Positions 1,736 through 37,000 of a DNA stretch of 64,000 bases are shown one piece after another. The notes beneath the pieces were generated by a model, which worked only from the letters and a program-made list of their open reading frames with translations, was not told the origin of the DNA and ran no database searches. The translations under genes and the position numbers were made by a program. Origin of the DNA: an uncultured Acidimicrobiaceae bacterium (GTDB lineage Bacteria; Actinomycetota; Acidimicrobiia; Acidimicrobiales; RAAP-2); contig CAVXSD010000009.1 in the NCBI GenBank assembly GCA_963764305.1, positions 369,949 through 433,948 of the forward strand, read 5' to 3'. Numbering within the stretch: the stretch's first letter is position 1; each line of letters begins with the position of its first letter.

Positions 1736-2595
1736 TGGACGATCCGTTCGTCACCCATCGCGGGCTGCTCTTCACCGTCGCCTACGAGATGCTCGGCTCC
1801 GCGACCGACGCCGAGGACGTCGTTCAGGAGACCTGGCTGCGCTGGGCGGGCGTGGATCGGACTGAGGTACGTGACCAGCGGGCGTATCTGGTCCGGATAG
1901 TCACTCGGCAGGCGCTGAACCGGCTCCGAACGGTGTCCCGCCGCCGAGAGGACTACCCCGGGGAATGGCTGCCCGAACCGGTGTTGACGGGTCCGGACAT
2001 GGCCGAGGACGCCGAGCTCGCCGAGAACATCTCGATCGCCCTGCTCACAGTGCTCGAGACCCTTGGTCCGGTCGAGCGGGCCGTGTTCGTACTGCACGAG
2101 GTATTCGAGACTCCGTACGACGAGGTCGCTGAGGTCGTGAGCAAGACGCCCGCCGCGGTCCGGCAGATCGCGCACCGTGCCCGGGAGCATGTGGCGGCAC
2201 GACGTCCGCGGATGCAGGTGGACCGAGCCCAACAAGAGGCAACCCTCAGACAGTTCATGGCAGCCGTTACCTCCGGTGATGTGCGGGGATTGGTGGAAGT
2301 GCTCGCCCCAGATGTGGTGTTGATCGCCGATGGCGGTGGTCTCGTGCGGGCTGCCAGGAAGCCGCTCGTCGGGGCGGAGACGGTTGTGGCGTTCCTGGCC
2401 CGCGTGGCGGATCTGTCGGGATTGATGGCAACGACTGCCTGGTTCAACGGCATGGCCGGCGCCCGGTTCGATGTTGGTGGCGATGTCACTGCGGTGAGTC
2501 TGGTGATCGAGAATGACCTGATCACACGGATCTACGCTGTCCGCAATCCGAACAAGCTGGGACGACTGGAAGAAGTGGCCGAACTGCGGCGGTGA
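1732..2595 (+). CDS. ECF sigma factor, ECF41/SigJ-like, with a fused SnoaL-like C-terminal domain
   Basis: 287 aa. Sigma-70 regions 2 and 4 are present (EDVVQETWLRW, YDEVAEVVSKTPAAVRQIAHRAREH). A roughly 100-aa C-terminal extension carries DGGGL and NPNKL motifs. There is no adjacent anti-sigma gene, and a CMD gene lies upstream. Confidence 0.9.
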   Translation: MMDDPFVTHRGLLFTVAYEMLGSATDAEDVVQETWLRWAGVDRTEVRDQRAYLVRIVTRQALNRLRTVSRRREDYPGEWLPEPVLTGPDMAEDAELAENISIALLTVLETLGPVERAVFVLHEVFETPYDEVAEVVSKTPAAVRQIAHRAREHVAARRPRMQVDRAQQEATLRQFMAAVTSGDVRGLVEVLAPDVVLIADGGGLVRAARKPLVGAETVVAFLARVADLSGLMATTAWFNGMAGARFDVGGDVTAVSLVIENDLITRIYAVRNPNKLGRLEEVAELRR

Positions 2596-2835
2596 CGTTC
2601 GGCGGTCACTTATGGGCTATCCCCATGGTGCGATTACGAGGGCCGTGCTGTTGCCGGCTTCAGCGCAGTCTTGAAGGGCAGTTGAAGGCCTTGCGACGTC
2701 CCGCCCGTTCATAGAGTCTCGGGTCCCTCAGTCATGAGGACGGTGTACCCACGACCAACACGTCATTAAGCGCCAATGAACTCTGTCCAGGGCAGTGCGC
2801 GACTCGGGCGGGGCCGCGCGTGCCAGGGCTGCTAG

Positions 2836-4548
2836 TCAGGTCCCGCGATCACCTTCCTCGCCCGGTCGTCCCACCACATCCAATTGCTCGTCGGCAAGGA
2901 GTCTTTGGACGAGCCGGACCGCGATTGAGCCCTCTCCTACCGCAGACGCCACCCGCTTGACCGAAGACCGCCTCACGTCTCCGGCTGCGAACACACGGGG
3001 CATGCTGGTCTCGAGTGAGTAGGGCTGTCGATCCAGGGGCCAGTTGGAAACCTCCGACACCTCTCCACCGGTGAGGAGGAACCCATTGGGGTCTCCTACA
3101 ATCTCTGGTGGCAGCCATTCCGTGTGAGGGTCGGCTCCGATCAACACGAACAATGCGTCAGCAGCGACTGTCTCTCGTTCGCCAGACCCTCTTTCTCGAA
3201 GCATCAACTGCTGGAGACGTCCCTCACCATCCCCGCCGACAACTTCGGTGCAGGTACGCACATCGAGGTTCGGCGTTGACTCGATCTCTTGGATGAGATA
3301 ATGCGACATCCCAACTTGAAGTGTCTGAGCCCGCACGACGAGCGTGACCTGTTTCGCATACCGCGCGAGATGGAGAACCGCCTGGCCGGCTGAGTTTCCG
3401 CCACCCACCACATACGCGACTTTGCCGCTCAGCGCAGGGGCCTCCGAGGCCGGCCCGCCGTAGAACACACCCGCCCCGGTCAATTCCTCAAGAGCAGGAA
3501 TACCGAGACGACGGTAGGTGGCCCCGACGGTCAGGATCACCGTTCGGGCCGTCACATGCCGTTCGTCAGCAAACGAGAGGGTGAGGAGGTCCCCCAAGCA
3601 AGTGAGGGCAGTGACGCGGTGCATGAACACGAAGGTCGCTCCGAACACTGAAGCCTGCTCGTAGGCCTGTTCGGCAAGCCGACTGCCGCTCACCCCTTTC
3701 GGAAAGCCCAGGTAGTTGCGAATCAGCGAGCTCGACCGCACCTGTCCCCCGATTCCGCCCTCATCGAGCACGAGGACCCGCAGGCCCTCCGAGGCGCCAT
3801 AGACAGCCGCGGACAGTCCCGCCGGCCCCGCACCCACAATGACGACGTCGTAGGTGTCTTCGTCGAAGTCGCTCGTGACCCCAGCGGCCTCTGCGATTTC
3901 CATGTTGGACGGATCGCTCAGAACCCGGCCGTCAGGAAGCACCATCATGGGGAGTTTGGCCTCGGGTCCTGCCTTGGCGAGCAGTTCACGCCCCTCAGTG
4001 GAGTCCGCCAGGCAAAAGGCGTGCGGAACCGCGCAACGCTCGAAAGTCTCCCTGAGCTCATACGCCCTGCCCGACCAGTCCTGACCGACAATGTGAATGG
4101 TGTGCGGGACCGTCCGTCGTTCGGTTGCCCACTCGAGGAGGAAGCTCGTCACGGACTCATGGAAGACCTCATCGGGTGGCCCACCGGGCCTAATTGCGTA
4201 GTAATGCACTCGCCCCAACGCGATGGAGGAGCGAAGCACATCTGCCCTCGACCTGTCTGCCCAGACATCCGGGGCAACCAGAAGCGCGCACTTCGCGTGC
4301 GGGTGGAGCTCGCGCACATGTTCGAGCAATCCACCCGAGGCGGTAACGGCCTCCGACTGCCCGACGAGTACCAGGGCAATATCCTCGGCGGCTTCCGCCA
4401 ACTCGGTCAGGCGCTGTCGTGCCAGTACTGGATCCCCGAGACACTCGACGCGATAGTCGTGCGCGTACCTTTGGCTCAACTGAGTCTTGAGAACGCCAAG
4501 GGTCCGTGGGTCCTCGTCAAAGGCGAACAGAACCGGGAGCGCCATCAT
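2836..4548 (-). CDS. FAD-dependent pyridine nucleotide-disulfide oxidoreductase (thioredoxin-reductase-like) with a roughly 230-aa N-terminal extension
   Basis: Two Rossmann motifs (VVIVGAGPAGLSAAVY, VVGGGNSAGQAV) and a TrxR-like C-terminus (VFAAGDVR). Start chosen at ATG 4548, which overlaps the upstream stop (ATGA). Confidence 0.85.
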   Translation of the reverse strand: MMALPVLFAFDEDPRTLGVLKTQLSQRYAHDYRVECLGDPVLARQRLTELAEAAEDIALVLVGQSEAVTASGGLLEHVRELHPHAKCALLVAPDVWADRSRADVLRSSIALGRVHYYAIRPGGPPDEVFHESVTSFLLEWATERRTVPHTIHIVGQDWSGRAYELRETFERCAVPHAFCLADSTEGRELLAKAGPEAKLPMMVLPDGRVLSDPSNMEIAEAAGVTSDFDEDTYDVVIVGAGPAGLSAAVYGASEGLRVLVLDEGGIGGQVRSSSLIRNYLGFPKGVSGSRLAEQAYEQASVFGATFVFMHRVTALTCLGDLLTLSFADERHVTARTVILTVGATYRRLGIPALEELTGAGVFYGGPASEAPALSGKVAYVVGGGNSAGQAVLHLARYAKQVTLVVRAQTLQVGMSHYLIQEIESTPNLDVRTCTEVVGGDGEGRLQQLMLRERGSGERETVAADALFVLIGADPHTEWLPPEIVGDPNGFLLTGGEVSEVSNWPLDRQPYSLETSMPRVFAAGDVRRSSVKRVASAVGEGSIAVRLVQRLLADEQLDVVGRPGEEGDRGT

Positions 4549-5195
4549 TGAACTGCCTCCGAGGGTTGACCAGGAAGCGGCTTCCAATAGTCGAGTCCCC
4601 TCCGATTCCGACTCGAGGAGGCGCTTGTGGCGTGCACGTCTTCGAACTGAGGAGCTTCGTCCTCGAGCGTCAGCTCAACGCCATTCGCGGCGAAACTGAT
4701 CGCGTGGTACCAGCCGCACAGCATCAGCAAGTCGAGGATCTCGACTTCAGTCAATTCTTCCGACAGGCGTTCCCATAATCCGTCAGGGATGCGACACTCG
4801 TCGTGCAGGGCATCGGCGACATCGATCAGGACTCGATCTCTCTGGTTCGCCCAGCACGGATCCCTCGACGCACCGTGGGTCAATGAGCTGATCTGCTCGG
4901 TAGTCAACCCGACCCGGTTGGCGAAGAATGCGACGTGGACGCCCCATTCGTACTCACAGCGACAGCGTGCACACGTTCGATCGATCACGATCTCTCGGTC
5001 ACGCATCGACAACGACAGGCGTTTGCTCAACTCGTAGCTGCCCCACGCCCCCATCGCGTTCGTCATCGCAAGGTTCTTCACAAAGGTACGAAACAGAAGT
5101 ATCGGTGGAACGCCCGGAGGCATCATCGCCTCCAACTGATCGCCCACGTCATCCTCATATGGTGGTTGTACTGGACTAATTCTGGACAGCATCAC
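4545..5195 (-). CDS. Carboxymuconolactone decarboxylase family protein
   Basis: 216 aa, intact. CMD-like CxxC region (RTCARCRCEYEWGVHV). Translationally coupled to the downstream oxidoreductase. Confidence 0.8.
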   Translation of the reverse strand: MMLSRISPVQPPYEDDVGDQLEAMMPPGVPPILLFRTFVKNLAMTNAMGAWGSYELSKRLSLSMRDREIVIDRTCARCRCEYEWGVHVAFFANRVGLTTEQISSLTHGASRDPCWANQRDRVLIDVADALHDECRIPDGLWERLSEELTEVEILDLLMLCGWYHAISFAANGVELTLEDEAPQFEDVHATSASSSRNRRGLDYWKPLPGQPSEAVQ

Positions 5196-5284: not shown

Positions 5285-5641
5285 ATGGCTCGCAGCACAA
5301 CTCCGAAACCGGGGCAGGAGGTTCGGGGTTCGACCACGGGGCGCCCTCTGATGGCGGCAATGGATCTTCTGGGACGGCGTTGGGCGCTCCGAATCCTTTG
5401 GGAGCTCCAGGCTGGGCCCATCGGAGCAAGAGCCCTTCAGGCCAGGTGCGACGGCATGTCGTCGAGTGTCCTCTACGACCGCCTCAGGGATCTTGCGACG
5501 TCTGGACTCGTCGAACGGACGCACGATGATCAGTACATTCTGAGCGAGCTGGGCGCTGCGCTCGGATCCGCACTCAAGCCACTGGACACATGGGCTCAGT
5601 CCTGGGCGACATCGCTCCAGCACAGGCCGTACGAAGAGTGA
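5285..5641 (+). CDS. HxlR-family winged-helix transcriptional regulator
   Basis: The motif AMDLLGRRWALRILWEL ... SSSVLYDRLRDLATSGLV is typical of HxlR. The ATG at 5285 is preceded by GGGAGGG. Confidence 0.85.
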   Translation: MARSTTPKPGQEVRGSTTGRPLMAAMDLLGRRWALRILWELQAGPIGARALQARCDGMSSSVLYDRLRDLATSGLVERTHDDQYILSELGAALGSALKPLDTWAQSWATSLQHRPYEE

Positions 5642-5834
5642 GGTGGCGAAGTTGCCTTCAGCTGCCTCCCTGGCGTTTCCAATCGCTGCGAAAGAGGTGT
5701 CGGGACTCTCACGTCAACCCGGCTTCATCTGCTGGTCGTCGACGAGCGAACGTGCCGGTCGGTGCGCCATGGCCATGGTTCGCCATTGGTTCGTGGATAT
5801 GTCGCTTCTCCCTGATCGACGGGTTCGTTGCCGT

Positions 5835-6233
5835 TCAGCCGGGTGGTGCAAAGAACTCAAGCGCGATGCCGTCAGGATCCCGAAAGCTCAGCGCTGAGCC
5901 GTAGGCAGCGTCCTTGATTGTGCCGTGCTCGATGCCGAGCTCGTCGAGGCGCGACGCCCACTTCTCAAGTTCGTCGCGGTTTGCACAGCCAAAGGCCAGA
6001 TGATCCAAACCGACTCGGTATTCGCTGAACGACTCCCTTGGTGCAGACCGCTTGTGCCGATGTAACCCGAGGAGCGTTCCGCCATCGAGCAGGTAGACAG
6101 TGTGGTGAAACTCGGGGTCAGTGTCCTCGTCGATCACGGGCTCGGCGTCGAGAAGTGCCTCGTACCACGGAACGCTGACCGAGAGGTCCCGTACGGTGAG
6201 AGCCGCAGGTGTGATTGATGGGAAGGTGCTCAT
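5835..6233 (-). CDS. VOC (glyoxalase/bleomycin-resistance/dioxygenase) family protein
   Basis: 132 aa, intact, with a single VOC-like module (HHTVYLLDGGTLLGLH, GLDHLAFG, ALSFRDPDGIALEFF). Confidence 0.8.
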   Translation of the reverse strand: MSTFPSITPAALTVRDLSVSVPWYEALLDAEPVIDEDTDPEFHHTVYLLDGGTLLGLHRHKRSAPRESFSEYRVGLDHLAFGCANRDELEKWASRLDELGIEHGTIKDAAYGSALSFRDPDGIALEFFAPPG

Positions 6234-32047: not shown

Positions 32048-32485
32048 GTGGGCACCATCCGGGCTCTGCAACGCGAGGACTGGGACGACTGGCGGGCCCT
32101 CTGGGGGGGCTACCTGGCCTTCTACCGGGCCGAGCTGCCCGACGCCACCTCCCGGGCGACCTTCGACCGCCTCTGCGCCGGTGACGACGGCCTGTTCGGC
32201 CTGCTCGCCGTCGACGACACCGGGCGGGGCATCGGGATGGCCAACTGCGTCGTGCACGCCTCGACCTGGTCCCGGCAGCCCAAGTGCTACCTGGAGGACC
32301 TCTTCGTGGCCCCGACGGCCCGGGGCCACGACGTCGGGCGAGCCCTGCTGGTGGCGGTCAAGGAGGCCGGCGCGGCGCGGGGGGCCGGCCGCGTCTACTG
32401 GCACACCCAGCAGTACAACGGGCGGGCCCGCTCGCTCTACGACCAGGTGGGGCAGCCCACGTCCTTCGTCGTCTACGAGATGTAG
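32048..32485 (+). CDS. GNAT-family N-acetyltransferase
   Basis: 145 aa with the acetyl-CoA motif VAPTARGHDVGRALLVAV. Confidence 0.8.
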   Translation: MGTIRALQREDWDDWRALWGGYLAFYRAELPDATSRATFDRLCAGDDGLFGLLAVDDTGRGIGMANCVVHASTWSRQPKCYLEDLFVAPTARGHDVGRALLVAVKEAGAARGAGRVYWHTQQYNGRARSLYDQVGQPTSFVVYEM

Positions 32486-32601
32486 CCGGCGCCGGCGCCG
32501 GCGCCTGTCACAGCAGTTCCGTAGGGTGTGCTCCATGCCCGGTGCGCGCCCTCTGATCCCGGCCCCGGCGCGTGGCGGCCGGTAGGGTTCGAGCCGACCG
32601 A

Positions 32602-34025
32602 ATGCCGCTTCGCCGTCGCACCGCGACCTCCAATTTCGGCGTCGGGCGCCGCGAATCGCACGTGGCGGACGCCTTCTACGCCCGCTTCGAGGCACCGGAG
32701 CTCAGCGCCGACGAGCACGTGCAGCCGCACGCGCCCGGCGTCTCCTGTGTGCAGGGCGACGCCCGGCGGATGGAGGCCGTGGCGGACGACTCGGTGGCCC
32801 TCGTGGTCACCTCGCCGCCGTACTTCGCCGGGAAGCAGTACGAGGAGGAGCTCGACCGTGAGGGAGTGCCGGGCTCCTACATCGAGTACCTGGCGCTGCT
32901 GCGCGGCGTCTTCGCCGAGTGCAAGCGGGTGCTCGAGCCGGGCGGCCGCATCGCCGTCAACGTGGCGAATCTCGGCCGCAAGCCCTATCGGAGCCTGGCC
33001 GCCGACGTCATGGCCATTCTGCAGGACGACCTGCACCTGTTGCCCCGGGGCGAGATCGTGTGGCAGAAGGGCGAGGGGGCCAGCGGCTCCTGCGCCTGGG
33101 GCTCCTTCCGCTCCCCCGCCAATCCGGTGCTGCGCGACGTGACCGAGCGCGTCATCGTGGCCAGCAAGGGGCGCTTCGGGCGGGCCCGCAGCGCCAAGGA
33201 GCGCCGGCGCGAGGGCCTGCCCCACGAGAGCACCATCGGGGCGGACGACTTCATGGCGCTGACGCTCGACGTCTGGGACATCCCGCCCGAGAGCGCGGTG
33301 CGCGTGCGGCACCCCGCACCCTTCCCCGTCGAGCTACCGCAACGGCTGATGGAGCTCTACACGTATCGAGGCGATCTCGTGGTCGATCCCTTCGCCGGGT
33401 CCGGCTCCACCCTCGTGGCGGCGCTGCACTGCGGGCGGGACGCCGTGGGCTACGACCTCGACCCCGCCTACGTCGAGCTGTCCCGTGCGCGCCTGGCGGC
33501 CGAGGCGCCGGTCGCCGGGGCCGCGGGCGTGGCCGCGTGCGCGGCGACGCCCAGGCCGTGGCGTTCGACGGGACCTCCGCCGCCACGCTGGCGCGGGCCG
33601 CGCTCGAGTCCGCCGGCTTCGCCGACGTGCGGCCCAACCGCCGCCTGCGCGGACTGGGACTGGCCGTCGACTTCACCGGCAGCGACGCCGCGGGCCGGAC
33701 GTGGTACTTCGACGTGGCCGGCCCGAACTCGGCCTACCGGGGCGGCATGGCGCGCTCCGAGACGGTGTGGCGGGCGCTCGGCCGGGCCCATGTGATGGCC
33801 GCCGGCGCAAAGGCGCCCTTCGTGGTGCTCACGACGCAGCTGCCCCGGTCCGGCACCGGGGCGGACCGCGCCCTGCGTGCTCCGGGACCGGGCGGGATCT
33901 TCGACGCCATCGACCTCCTCTCGGCCGACGCCCGGGCGCGGCTGGCGACGTACGCCGGCGGCCGGACGGTCTCACCCCGGGCGGGGTTCTGGTCGGCCGC
34001 GGACGTGACCCCGGGCGGCGTCTGA
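32602..34025 (+). pseudogene. Beta-class (N6_N4-type) DNA methyltransferase with an SPPY motif. The frame switches near 33535 into an uncharacterised 160-aa C-terminal module (fusion broken by an indel, or two overlapping genes)
   Basis: Motif IV VVTSPPYFAGKQYE lies before motif I VVDPFAGSGSTLVAA, which is the beta-class order. After about 33530 the MTase frame becomes Pro/Arg-rich off-frame-like sequence. The frame of ORF 32919..34025 instead reads well-formed protein (DFTGSDAAGRTWYFDVAG...PFVVLTTQLP) to TGA 34023-34025. Confidence 0.75.
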
Positions 34026-34059
34026 CCATGGACGGCGTCTGACCATGGACGGGGTCTGA
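34017..34059. repeat. 17-bp tandem repeat (GGCGTCTGACCATGGAC x2 plus 9 nt) at a gene junction
   Basis: 34017-34033 is identical to 34034-34050, with a partial third copy at 34051-34059. Each copy contains a TGA and an ATG. Confidence 0.95.
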
Positions 34060-34373
34060 TGGGCTCCGTCGTCGCCTGCGCGGTCGTGCGGGAGGACCCG
34101 CCGCGCGTGTTCGTCGCCGAGGACCTCGACACGCTGAACTGGGTGCTGGCCTGCCAGCTGGTGGCCAAGACGCCCGGTCGCGACCTGCCGCCCGGCGAGC
34201 GCGCCGCGCTGCGCCAGGCCCTGCGCGAAGAGCGCTGGGGCGACGCCGTGTTCGCCTTCATCGCCCGCACGGGGACGGCGGTCGACGTCTACGAGAGCAC
34301 CGACCTGCACCTGACCGCCGATGCGCCGGTGGGGCCACTGGAGCTCCAGCTCACCCCCCTGTTCACCGAGTAG
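34059..34373 (+). CDS. Hypothetical protein (104 aa)
   Basis: The ATG at 34059 overlaps the TGA of the second mini-ORF. GC-rich third positions, no recognisable family. Confidence 0.45.
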   Translation: MGSVVACAVVREDPPRVFVAEDLDTLNWVLACQLVAKTPGRDLPPGERAALRQALREERWGDAVFAFIARTGTAVDVYESTDLHLTADAPVGPLELQLTPLFTE

Positions 34374-34537
34374 ACGCCGACTCGCCCGAAACCAGGCGCG
34401 CGACGCCTGAGGTCGGGCTCTCCCTGCCGCTGCGAGAAGAGGTACCGGAACGACACCTTGACGTCGTGCTCGCCCGGCGGCACGGCGAACATGTGGTCAC
34501 CCCACTTGAGCACCGAGGTCGTCCCGTCGATGGTCAC
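34289..34537 (-). pseudogene. Possible C-terminal gene fragment
   Basis: The reading TKIFPLAFLLLRFNTNVTIDGTTSVLKWGDHMFAVPPGEHDVKV looks protein-like. However, an in-frame stop lies just upstream and only a GTG is available as a start. The tail overlaps the convergent ORF. Confidence 0.2.
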
Positions 34538-34783
34538 GTTCGTGTTGAAGCGCAGGAGCAGGAAGGCCAGCGGGAAGATCTTGGTCCTGACCAGTATTCC
34601 AGTGGTTGTCTCGTGCTGAGCTCACGACGATGGTCCCTTTCCTCGCATACAGCGAGCTGCGAGCCCGTCCGTCCCTGTCGTCGAGCGCAACGCGTGTCGC
34701 CTCGGAAACGCGTCGGTAAGGGCGCTCCGGGATGGGGTACGTCCGTTCGGAACAGCGGGGTCTCCGGGTGGGAGGATGCCCTC

Positions 34784-35980
34784 ATGCCGAGCGACCGCAC
34801 CACGGTGACCGAGCTCAGCACCGGTCTCGGCATGCTGGGGCTGGCGGGCATCGAGGAGGCGCTGCGGCAGCGCACGGCCGTGATGCACAGCCTGTCCCCC
34901 GAGATGTGGGAGCGCCTGGACCGCCTGCGCTCCGGGGGCGCCTACGACGCGGAGTTCCACGCCGCCTGGGCGAACGGGCGGGCCTTCCTGACGGCCGCCG
35001 ACGGCCTCCGGGGCCGACCGCCCCGGGTGGTCGAGTGGAAGGGCACCGGCCGCGCCCCGGGCGACGAGGTGGCACCCATCGACCTCCGCATCGACCACGT
35101 CTATCTCGTGAGCTGCAAGTACCTCTCGAAGATCCTCTTCAACGTCTCGCCGACCAGCGTCTTCGACTCCCTCCTCTTCGGGGGGCAGGGCCGGGGTGCC
35201 CGCGCCGCGAGGGAGGTGCTGCCGGGCGGCGGCGACTGGTACGTCGAGGTGGCGCCGGCCGAGTACCAGGCCTTGTACGAGGCCGTCCGCGAATCAGCGC
35301 GGGGTGGCGTGGCGGCCGAGCCACCACCGCCCGGATCGGCGGCCCACCCGGAGCGCGCCGGCCGGCCGGCCGCCGCCCCGGTGCTCCCGGGACTCGGAGC
35401 GGTCCCGGTCACCGGGGCGGTCGCGTCCGGTGGATCACGAGGCGAGGCGCGGCCGGCGCTGTTGCGCGACCTGCCACTCCGGGCGGTGGACCTCACCGTG
35501 CCCCAGCGCGACGCGCTGGGCCGGTGGCTCCGAGCCGGCTGGCCGGCGGGCGCCAAGGATCTCTACGCGGCGCTGTCGAGTGCGGTCGCCCGTGCCTCCG
35601 CACGTCGGTGGGAAGCGGCGATGGAAGCCGGGGCGGCGGCCGGTGAGGCCATGCTCTGGCGCCTCCTGCGCATCGGGAGCGCGCCGTACTTCGTGCTGGG
35701 TTCCTCGACCGCCCGCTCCCTGCGCCTGCGCATCGCCACTTCTTGGGACTGGCGCCAGCAGTTCCAGCTCGTCGCGTTCGCCATGGAGGCCCAGCCCGGA
35801 GGCCAGCCCCGGGTGGGATGGGAGGCCACGGTGCGCGACCGGGTCTCCCATGCGGTGCACTCCGTGGTCGGGCACATCGAGGTCCGCTGGAGCCACGGCC
35901 GCTTCGGAGGGCTCCCCGAGGCCAAGGGTTACCTCGACACGGCTCACCATCTCGTTCCCGGCTATTTCACGCTCCGATGA
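34784..35980 (+). CDS. Uncharacterised 398-aa protein with a PD-(D/E)xK-like D-x9-S-x-K motif (candidate nuclease)
   Basis: GGAGGA lies 7 nt upstream of the ATG at 34784. The motif is APIDLRIDHVYLVSCKYLS. There is a central Ala/Pro/Gly-rich low-complexity insert. The C-terminal half is well formed (APYFVLGSS...EVRWSHGRFGG). Confidence 0.6.
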   Translation: MPSDRTTVTELSTGLGMLGLAGIEEALRQRTAVMHSLSPEMWERLDRLRSGGAYDAEFHAAWANGRAFLTAADGLRGRPPRVVEWKGTGRAPGDEVAPIDLRIDHVYLVSCKYLSKILFNVSPTSVFDSLLFGGQGRGARAAREVLPGGGDWYVEVAPAEYQALYEAVRESARGGVAAEPPPPGSAAHPERAGRPAAAPVLPGLGAVPVTGAVASGGSRGEARPALLRDLPLRAVDLTVPQRDALGRWLRAGWPAGAKDLYAALSSAVARASARRWEAAMEAGAAAGEAMLWRLLRIGSAPYFVLGSSTARSLRLRIATSWDWRQQFQLVAFAMEAQPGGQPRVGWEATVRDRVSHAVHSVVGHIEVRWSHGRFGGLPEAKGYLDTAHHLVPGYFTLR

Positions 35981-36564
35981 GCGCCTTCGACCCCACGGCC
36001 TTCACCCCCCCGCTGCGGGTCCCCGAACTCTCCTCCCCGCAGGTCGTGCTTCGGCCCTACGCTGTCTCCGATCTCGCGATGGTGCGCGAGGCCGCGGCCG
36101 ATCCGTTCATCCCCTCCATCTCGTCGGTGCCACGGACGTACACGGACGACTCCGGCCGGGCTTTCATCGAGCGCCAGCACGCGTGCAGCACCGAGGGCGA
36201 CGGGTACTCCTTCGTGATCGCGCCGGCGAAGGACCCCGAGGCCGGCGTCGGGTCCATCGGGCTGTGGCTGCAGGAGATAGAGGGCGGGCGCGCCTCCATC
36301 GGCTACTGGATCGTCACCAGCGCGCGCGGGCAGGGTCTCGCCGCCTGCGCCCTGCAGGCCGTGGTGTCGTTCGCGTTCGGGACCCTCGCCATCCCGCGGC
36401 TGCACCTCTTCGTCGAGCCCTGGAACGTGGCATCGGCCCGGACGGCCGAGGCCGCCGGCTTCCGGCGCGAGGCGACGCTGCGGGGCTGGGAGCGCATCGA
36501 CGGTCAGCAACACGACGCCGACTGCTTCGCCCTTCTCCATGCGGAGTGGGCTCCGCAGGGCTGA
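35977..36564 (+). CDS. GNAT (RimJ/RimL-type) N-acetyltransferase
   Basis: The ATG overlaps the upstream stop (ATGA at 35977-35980). Motifs IGYWIVTSARGQGLAACA and EPWNVASARTAEAAGF. Confidence 0.8.
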   Translation: MSAFDPTAFTPPLRVPELSSPQVVLRPYAVSDLAMVREAAADPFIPSISSVPRTYTDDSGRAFIERQHACSTEGDGYSFVIAPAKDPEAGVGSIGLWLQEIEGGRASIGYWIVTSARGQGLAACALQAVVSFAFGTLAIPRLHLFVEPWNVASARTAEAAGFRREATLRGWERIDGQQHDADCFALLHAEWAPQG

Positions 36565-36601
36565 GCGGGACTCGGTCGACCCCCTCTGCGAGACTGCCCA
36601 G

Positions 36602-37000
36602 GTGTTCGGGCACGATCACCGGGACGAGAAGATCGAGACGCGGATCGACCACCTGATGGCGGGCGTCTTCGTGGTGAACGACGACGAGCGCATGGAGAGT
36701 TTGGCCGCGCACGTTGCGCCCGACTTCGTCTACGTCAGCCCGGAGGCGGTCTTCGAGGGGCCGCAAGGTCTCAGCGACGCGTTCACCCGCCATCGCAATG
36801 CAGTCCGGTGGACCAGCCTGCAGCGGACCAGCCCGGTGGACATCCATCACGGCTACTTCCGCTACTGCTGGGAGCGGATCGAGCGAGGCACCGTCGCCAT
36901 GGAGGGCTGGAGCTTCGGTTGGCTGGACGAGGCGGGGGCGATCTGCCGGGTCGTGACCTTCGAGGGATTGGTGCCGGGCCAGCCCGACGGCCGATCATGA
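36602..37000 (+). CDS. NTF2/SnoaL-like fold protein
   Basis: Small alpha+beta pattern. The GTG at 36602 is chosen because the upstream part overlaps the GNAT gene. Confidence 0.5.
   Translation: MFGHDHRDEKIETRIDHLMAGVFVVNDDERMESLAAHVAPDFVYVSPEAVFEGPQGLSDAFTRHRNAVRWTSLQRTSPVDIHHGYFRYCWERIERGTVAMEGWSFGWLDEAGAICRVVTFEGLVPGQPDGRS

Follow-up and report, generated by a model that had tools for sequence, protein, structure and literature searches.

When an undescribed gene directly follows a DNA methyltransferase (MTase) gene, do the two form a restriction-modification (R-M) system, or do they serve the chromosome that carries them? This question is raised by a locus in a 64,000-nucleotide stretch of contig CAVXSD010000009.1 (hereafter, the window), which comes from an uncultured bacterium of the Acidimicrobiaceae. 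From 5' to 3', the locus, which was read over positions 32400-36700, consists of an MTase open reading frame (ORF), a module in frame 3, a 17-bp repeat, a 104-aa ORF, a 410-bp gap, a 398-aa ORF, and an ORF encoding a GNAT acetyltransferase. An initial annotation, made from the sequence alone, had grouped these elements as a candidate defense locus of five parts. All five are found at the positions that it gave, but the series is interrupted by a decayed minus-strand gene remnant between the 104-aa and 398-aa ORFs. The conserved core consists of the MTase and the 398-aa protein, referred to below as the partner; the module, which is the MTase's own C-terminal domain, and the 104-aa protein are accessories that occur together.

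Mobility, a patchy distribution, and a short life are the norm for R-M systems, and conserved MTases usually stand alone. The pair described here fits neither of these usual patterns, as an MTase and a dedicated partner of novel-looking fold are kept together in the core genome of an entire, mostly uncultured class. The explanation that we favor, to which we give roughly an even chance, is that an R-M-type pair has turned into a permanent chromosomal resident of the Acidimicrobiia, a group of actinobacteria from soil and the sea, and that the partner represents an undescribed, probably nucleolytic family. Should the partner prove to be an endonuclease, it would define a new family of restriction endonucleases (REases), and the pair would be a rare example of permanent R-M domestication; otherwise, the partner would be a new kind of methylation-linked chromosomal factor. 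The pair is also a gene set small enough for tests in E. coli or a tractable actinobacterium.

Conservation and linkage of the methyltransferase and its partner

The related set consists of 80 loci from a scan with one genome per GTDB species. All of them come from metagenome-assembled genomes (MAGs) of Acidimicrobiaceae or Acidimicrobiales, and the presence and identity of genes were determined across them by tblastn with all window genes. In 75 of these 80 genomes, a gene of this MTase family is directly followed by a member of the 398-aa family. For the distant set, a profile search was performed with distant members of the 398-aa family, the gene contexts were read, and 80 metagenome loci were added; this set comprises 87 loci, and linkage was tabulated for the 41 in which the upstream sequence extends for 1.9 kb or more. 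The partner is directly downstream of an MTase in 33 of these 41 loci, in other gene neighborhoods: the co-oriented MTase stands alone directly upstream in 12 loci, carries the C-terminal domain in six, and both carries this domain and is followed by a homolog of the 104-aa protein in 15. The MTase is downstream of the partner in one further locus (L114), and no MTase is present within the locus in the remaining seven. In L108, which is not among the 41 because its upstream sequence is shorter than 1.9 kb, the MTase is on the opposite strand, divergent from the partner. The neighborhoods of the linked pairs are wholly different (the window type, CarD/thiolase, AcnX/GGDEF, TIG/glyoxalase, and NAD synthase/GlnA), and MTase and partner are separated by 1-40 nt in most loci (2 nt in L094, 1 nt in L086, and 15 nt in L085). 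The MTase and the partner are the conserved core because their linkage is kept across distant neighborhoods, whereas the accessories and the GNAT occur only in part of the loci. The initial annotation had proposed that the 398-aa protein could be the cognate nuclease or another effector; its role as a dedicated partner of the MTase is strongly supported by this linkage (75/80 related and 33/41 distant loci); the same counts contradict the possibility, also raised there, that its homologs are never linked to an MTase.

The catalytic domain of the beta-class amino-DNA MTase extends on the plus strand from the ATG at 32602 to 33510, and its frame-1 ORF continues, no longer in register, as far as the stop at 33795. 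It matches the Pfam model N6_N4_Mtase PF01555 (E = 7e-35, 121.4 bits, cut-off 26.7) and the PADLOC model MTase_II PDLC03350 (E = 4.8e-74, 247.6 bits, profile positions 7-295 of 312), with the family-model match ending at about residue 298. Motif IV, TSPPY (32809-32823, plus strand, residues 70-74), is N-terminal to motif I, DPFAGSGST, which binds S-adenosylmethionine (33385-33411, plus strand, residues 262-270). This is the beta-class order, and the class assigned in the initial annotation is borne out by both models. The nearest solved relative is TTHA0409 (2zie, E = 3e-34), followed by cytosine-N4 MTases (8s9m/8s9n), PvuII, RsrI, and CcrM. The SPPY motif and these closest solved relatives suggest that the methylated base is probably N4-cytosine.

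The partner gene (34784-35980, plus strand) belongs to an undescribed family. Homologs fall into more than 3,394 clusters at 90% identity in a word-indexed search, and an exhaustive HMMER search gave 510 clusters at 50% identity; the protein is thus not the orphan that it had been taken for. The named sources are all Acidimicrobiales, Acidimicrobiaceae, or "Actinobacteria," and the family appears to be confined to the Acidimicrobiia. It has no match in Pfam or NCBIfam, a profile search of PDB sequences gave only noise, and an exact-sequence look-up of the window protein returned no record. A comparison of 141 intact sequences shows 34 positions with no or almost no variation. They include E10, E84, W85, P98-x-D100, R102, D104, S110-C111-K112, R296, Q341, H364, E366-x-R-W-S-H371-G, P378-E379-x-K381, and D385; many are charged, among them D100, K112, E366, H371, E379, and K381. 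Two invariant motifs stand out, P98-x-D100...S110-C111-K112 at 35075-35119 (plus strand; PIDLRIDHVYLVSCK) and the C-terminal E366-x-R-W-S-H-G...P-E379-x-K381 at 35879-35926 (plus strand). Distant members of the family are about 335 aa long and do not have the low-complexity, disordered insert of about 60 Pro/Ala/Gly-rich residues that is specific to the clade of the window (35291-35479, plus strand, residues ~170-232); in the model of the window protein, the predicted local distance difference test (pLDDT) score is below 50 at residues 185-220.

The entire region is syntenic across the 80 species-level genomes. The locus has a G+C content of about 72% and no compositional break, and the flanking genes for an enoyl-CoA hydratase, a luciferase-like monooxygenase, an aldo-keto reductase, and a glyoxalase are found in 73-76 of the related loci. 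With its even composition and its conserved synteny with metabolic genes, the region is vertically inherited core genome and not an island, and a mobile or novel five-part defense locus is not supported. The MTase was found in 75 loci, with a median identity to the window of 91.7%; its C-terminal module was found in 75 (79.7%), the 104-aa ORF in 74 (87.6%), and the GNAT in 79 (75.9%). Median identity is 86.3% for UbiB, and that of an Smr-domain gene, present in only 16 loci, equals that of the MTase (91.7%). With a median identity of 69.7%, the partner evolves faster than the MTase, and a modification/restriction pair fits for this reason. The related MAG assemblies are rich in frameshifts; about 15 of the 80 loci, for example, have a broken 398-aa gene. 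A tblastn search with the 398-aa protein and one distant homolog found no homolog of the family on plasmids or phages, and a scan of viral contigs gave only a remote match to the MTase, in its motif I region.

Nature and role of the partner

In the explanation that we favor, the core would be a two-gene module, composed of a beta-class amino-DNA MTase (probably N4-cytosine) and then a protein of the 398-aa family, that is ancient in the Acidimicrobiia and vertically inherited in the core chromosome. The MTase would put a sequence-specific mark on the chromosome, and the partner would most likely be a DNA endonuclease descended from Type II REases, with an activity that is tied to this mark. 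Two accessories would have been gained in part of the lineage, the window included: the REase-fold C-terminal domain of the MTase and a translationally coupled 104-aa protein. Within this scheme, the data show the identity of the MTase, the fusion of its domains, the rules of linkage and co-occurrence, vertical inheritance, and conservation; a nuclease activity of the partner, the identity of the methylated base, and a role in either restriction of foreign DNA or a chromosomal function are inferences.

The arguments for a nuclease come from motif-level hints and a weak match to a REase model, which suggest, rather than establish, such an activity. In the AlphaFold model of the partner, which is confident (pLDDT 83, predicted TM-score (pTM) 0.81), the invariant P-x-D...S-x-K motif maps to a predicted beta-hairpin formed by strands 101-103 and 107-110. 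Its 10-residue spacing resembles that of the PvuII motif. A second candidate motif, E366...E379-x-K381, is located on the last hairpin. Among 15 members of the family, 13 weakly match the REBASE-derived PADLOC model REase_II PDLC03456 at a collinear C-terminal position (best E = 2.6e-6), and this match covers only the C-terminal motif. With the nuclease proposal of the initial annotation supported by the invariant P-x-D...S-C-K residues, this weak match, and the recurrence of the C-terminal motif in a fragment beside C5-MTases (described below), but not by any structural match in the PDB, we consider the case for an endonuclease to be evenly balanced. The sole significant structural relative found by Foldseek is an uncharacterized marine-phage protein in BFVD (E = 3.4e-4). 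No relation between the halves of the 398-aa family and the MTase C-terminal domain, or between the two halves, was detected with hhalign.

The GQP...EVRWSHGKF...PESK motif of the family was also observed in a 109-aa ORF (88-417) of a viral, low-G+C contig, L168 (IMGVR_UViG_3300000553_003694). This ORF, which may be truncated, is directly upstream of one C5-cytosine MTase gene (433-1680), and a second one, oppositely oriented, is nearby (2000-3103). A tblastn search with this fragment against plasmids and phages gave no match.

The pair shares several features with Type II R-M systems that have a beta-class N4-cytosine MTase (PvuII, BamHI-type): an SPPY MTase is directly followed by a faster-evolving partner gene, whose product shows PvuII-like spacing in a P-D...x-K-type motif and a weak collinear match to a REBASE-derived REase model, and gene order and orientation vary between lineages with linkage kept. 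The differences are that this pair is vertical, with class-wide synteny, instead of sporadic or mobile, that the MTase is extended by a further domain of nuclease fold and accompanied by a coupled 104-aa protein, and that the partner has no detectable REase fold. The initial annotation had remarked that the GNAT coupling and the extra module do not fit a textbook Type II system; the persistence of the partner without an adjacent MTase and vertical core-genome inheritance argue against a classical R-M system.

A number of observations weigh against a pair of R-M origin with a nuclease as partner. Foldseek comparison of the partner model with the PDB gave a best E of 0.14, template modeling (TM) scores of at most 0.12, and no nuclease among the matches, and the PD-(D/E)xK core fold was not detected in the protein by structure comparison. 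A Ser (S110) stands where an acidic residue is expected in the PD-(D/E)xK motif, and the REase_II match spans only about 25-30 residues in most members, with one member aligning over about 100. Strict vertical inheritance and kept synteny, with no plasmid or phage homologs, are atypical of R-M systems, and the conservation of the MTase equals that of its best-conserved housekeeping neighbors. No clear avoided site emerged from palindrome statistics on the whole sequences of the window and L001-L080, in which the observed/expected ratio of CGCG is about 0.8. Finally, the partner is intact, with all invariant residues, without an adjacent MTase in four loci of the window clade (L048, L049, L052, and L064), and is likewise intact without one elsewhere (L081, L082, L084, L087, L142, L153, and L166); these solo loci, at least 11, were judged within +/-5-7 kb. 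A solo partner would be lethal if it were a classical REase, unless a second MTase is present elsewhere in the genome, and its persistence therefore argues against a classical restriction enzyme.

In the subclade of L048, L049, L052, and L064 (~5400-6001), the locus has neither the MTase with its C-terminal domain nor the 104-aa ORF, and the partner gene directly adjoins UbiB or the upstream GNAT; both the 398-aa gene and the GNAT coupled to it are still intact. L082 and L084 have the same neighborhood as L086, which keeps the full cassette, and the MTase unit was therefore probably lost there and the partner kept. Divergent unknown genes beside the solo partners were considered as hidden MTases and rejected, as they are unrelated to one another and to every gene of the locus.

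Several of these features would also suit a housekeeping epigenetic module, in which a CcrM- or Dam-like MTase marks the chromosome and the partner reads or uses the mark in repair-strand choice, replication, or transcription; the partner could then be a MutH-like nicking enzyme or no nuclease at all. Thus, the pair is group-wide and vertically inherited in a syntenic core genome, few genes of the region are as well conserved as the MTase, and the partner, which has no REase-like fold match, outlasts the adjacent MTase with all of its invariant residues and has no plasmid or phage homologs in the searches above. Methylation motifs are reported to be class-wide in the Acidimicrobiia (PMC8919816), and CcrM likewise has a C-terminal DNA-binding domain (PMC6787082). 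However, the tight order of MTase then partner, linked even when rearranged, is the classic R-M arrangement, and the C-terminal motif is common to the REBASE-derived REase model and to the fragment beside the C5-MTases. Moreover, no regulatory or repair domain is recognizable, and for a partner that requires the mark, persistence in the absence of the MTase would likewise have to be explained. We regard such a module as the main, though doubtful, alternative. The comparison with CcrM of the Alphaproteobacteria is itself divided: both are clade-wide beta-class MTases under strong purifying selection with an additional C-terminal domain, and the window MTase plausibly accounts for a class-wide methylation motif, but CcrM has DPPY (N6-adenine) and no dedicated partner gene. 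In addition, the two resemble each other in sequence only around motif I (6pbd, E = 7.6e-7), the score against the NCBIfam model DnaMtaseCcrMCaul is 43.6 bits for a cut-off of 830, and the C-terminal fold of the window MTase is REase-like, with 6pbd absent from its Foldseek matches. Still more speculative, and in our opinion improbable, is a class-wide methylation-coupled DNA-processing system with a chromosomal housekeeping role, formed by a conserved m4C (or m6A) MTase, fused to a NucS-like domain in many lineages, and an enzyme of a fold unlike solved structures. If true, this would be a functional analog of Dam/MutH made from different parts, serving strand discrimination in repair or replication-coupled processing, and it would explain the universal methylation motifs reported for the Acidimicrobiia.

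Could all five elements instead act together, as a multi-component anti-phage system of MTase, module, 104-aa protein, 398-aa effector, and coupled GNAT? They are all co-oriented, the ATGA coupling of the GNAT is kept in 79 of the 80 related loci, and distant lineages, too, have a conserved cassette that comprises the MTase with its C-terminal domain, the 104-aa ORF, and the partner. Yet the GNAT is linked in none of the 87 distant loci, which removes it as a system component, the cassette shrinks to MTase and partner in many lineages, and a decayed minus-strand gene splits the two halves. There is no sign of an island, given the even composition and the metabolic synteny in 80 genomes. The PADLOC check proposed with the initial annotation returned only the generic MTase_II and the marginal REase_II, leaving the C-terminal domain, the 104-aa ORF, and the GNAT unmatched. 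Such a system is highly unlikely. We give similarly little credence to the view that the MTase and the 398-aa protein are functionally unlinked and are neighbors by shared ancestry alone. The known carriers apparently belong to one class, in which linkage and ancestry are hard to separate, and solo partner genes exist; against this, adjacency is kept amid wholly different surrounding genes (window, CarD/thiolase, AcnX/GGDEF, and TIG/glyoxalase types), it survives changes in order and orientation (L114, L108), and the spacing is only 1-40 nt in most loci.

Candidate methylation motifs

Methylation of CGCG and BAAAA was reported in all Acidimicrobiia MAGs examined, at least one of which had an N4-methylcytosine (m4C) motif alongside an N6-methyladenine (m6A) motif (PMC8919816). 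The verified BAAAA MTases of marine Acidimicrobiia, M.AspCt9H300mP26I and M.AspCt9H90mP5I, look "orphan" (Hiraoka et al., 2022; PMC8919816), a term used because no known REase is nearby (PMC8919816). The locus described here is thus a gene candidate for the motifs reported across the class. As the BAAAA enzymes make m6A and SPPY points to m4C, CGCG is the more natural candidate for the window MTase, and this class-conserved SPPY enzyme might be responsible for the CGCG mark. It resembles M.AspCt9H300mP26I and M.AspCt9H90mP5I in that these are also Acidimicrobiia MTases tied to a class-wide motif; it differs from these m6A makers in that its SPPY motif points to m4C.

In the palindrome statistics, CTAG shows the depletion that is common to most bacteria. 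Of the 6-mer palindromes, CGCGCG and TCGCGA show some of the strongest depletion, with observed/expected ratios of about 0.5-0.6, which is too weak to assign a site. Depletion of AGTACT and AGATCT was also observed in the related loci.

Accessory elements and neighboring genes

The module, which had been described as a separate 160-aa unit of no recognized family, is real and conserved, but it is not separate. In 62 of 75 related loci, it forms a single ORF of about 460-490 codons with the MTase and is, for this reason, its C-terminal domain. In the window, it is out of frame with the catalytic domain and occupies 33558-34025 (plus strand, frame 3, ~155-160 aa; the initial annotation started it at 33537). 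The two parts are joined by a G+C-rich linker (33511-33557) that contains the frame change and, at 33519-33545, a 12-bp repeat; alignment with L001-L013 shows that its length is variable. In the window and in its closest relative, L001 (~4870-4935), the frame of the linker is shifted in opposite directions, which indicates independent indels. Given the many frameshifts in these MAG assemblies, the frame changes may be assembly errors, or they may reflect a mutable tract.

An AlphaFold2 model of the C-terminal domain (pLDDT 88.9, pTM 0.87) has the topology a-b-b-b-a-b-a-b-a. Its best Foldseek matches are NucS/EndoMS (5gke, 2vld; probability 0.99, E ~0.03, TM 0.43-0.45), followed by BsoBI, R2 RLE, SfsA, Card1, EcoO109I, EcoT38I, XisH, and VRR_NUC. 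The top matches are all PD-(D/E)xK proteins (probability 0.94-0.99, TM 0.43-0.47), and although their statistics are marginal (E 0.03-0.1), they are mutually consistent. In 102 sequences, the conserved positions are G20-F21, D43 (86%), W49, D52 (97%), G55, R61, G63, W71, T92, P96, and D116, of which only D52, D43, and D116 are acidic. The catalytic Asp and (Asp/Glu)-x-Lys are not conserved in these sequences, as D52 is followed by V-A/S-G with no Lys, and the Glu of helix 1 (E17) is variable. A profile search of PDB sequences with the domain gave only noise, and it has no match in Pfam, NCBIfam, or PADLOC. Its likeness to NucS/EndoMS and other PD-(D/E)xK nucleases thus resides in the predicted a-b-b-b-a-b core, and the differences are the absence of sequence similarity and of conserved catalytic residues. 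The domain is probably a restriction-endonuclease-fold module and not a conventional nuclease; because the canonical catalytic triad is absent, it is more likely to be a DNA-binding or interaction module. In another lineage, L083 (5557-6939), the MTase is without this domain and has an N-terminal extension of about 155 aa with a Cys-rich stretch (CEGCG...WCSDAC), which may be an alternative DNA-binding module; the 104-aa ORF is also absent there.

Downstream of the C-terminal domain, the duplicated 17-bp junction reported in the initial annotation was recovered by Tandem Repeats Finder at 34016-34059 (plus strand, period 17, 2.6 copies, 96% match). This tandem repeat of a stop/start junction creates two M-D-G-V-stop mini-ORFs (34028-34042 and 34045-34059, plus strand), and the stop of the last one overlaps the ATG of the 104-aa ORF. 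The junction is a tandem-repeat hotspot, with a unit of 17-19 bp and a copy number that differs between species. Relatives have a GTGA overlap, a single junction with a 6-8-nt gap, or up to about five extra copies, each of which gives a mini-ORF of 4-5 codons; variants were seen in L001 (~5390-5480), L003, L013, L016, and others. The end of the domain, ...GGC-GxC-GTC-TGA, and the next start, ATG-GGC-xCC-GTC, constitute a direct repeat about 17 nt apart, and slippage between this similar gene end and start is the likely source of the copy variation. Copy number could conceivably tune translational coupling.

The 104-aa ORF (34059-34373, plus strand) is a genuine conserved gene, present in 74 of the 80 related loci. 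Its distant homologs occur only downstream of MTases with the C-terminal domain. The protein has no match in Pfam, NCBIfam, or PADLOC, and a profile search of PDB sequences gave noise. Within the 410-bp gap that separates the 104-aa ORF from the 398-aa gene is a decayed gene remnant (34289-34620, minus strand), derived from a gene for a small membrane protein, which in the window has lost its start codon and its C-terminus. In L002 (4301-5850) and about 10 other loci, this gap measures 1.7-2.6 kb and is filled by the intact small membrane-protein gene and a gene for a 411-aa membrane protein, both on the minus strand. The remnant is not part of the system.

The GNAT gene (35977-36564, plus strand) begins within the stop of the partner gene, its ATG overlapping the TGA as ATGA at 35977-35980, in agreement with the initial annotation. 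Its assignment as a RimJ-type enzyme did not stand: the protein matches the general Pfam model Acetyltransf_3 (E = 1.2e-23, 84.8 bits, cut-off 25.4) and falls far below the NCBIfam equivalog cut-offs for both RimL (33.6 bits vs. 184) and RimJ (24.6 bits vs. 190). Consistent with its distribution, the GNAT is a clade-specific operon neighbor and not part of the module. Scans of the locus with Rfam and for promoters and terminators gave no result. In one MAG, MFD01716.bin.2.97, the whole syntenic region is present on each of three contigs (L010, L011, and L026), and this bin is probably a mix of closely related strains.

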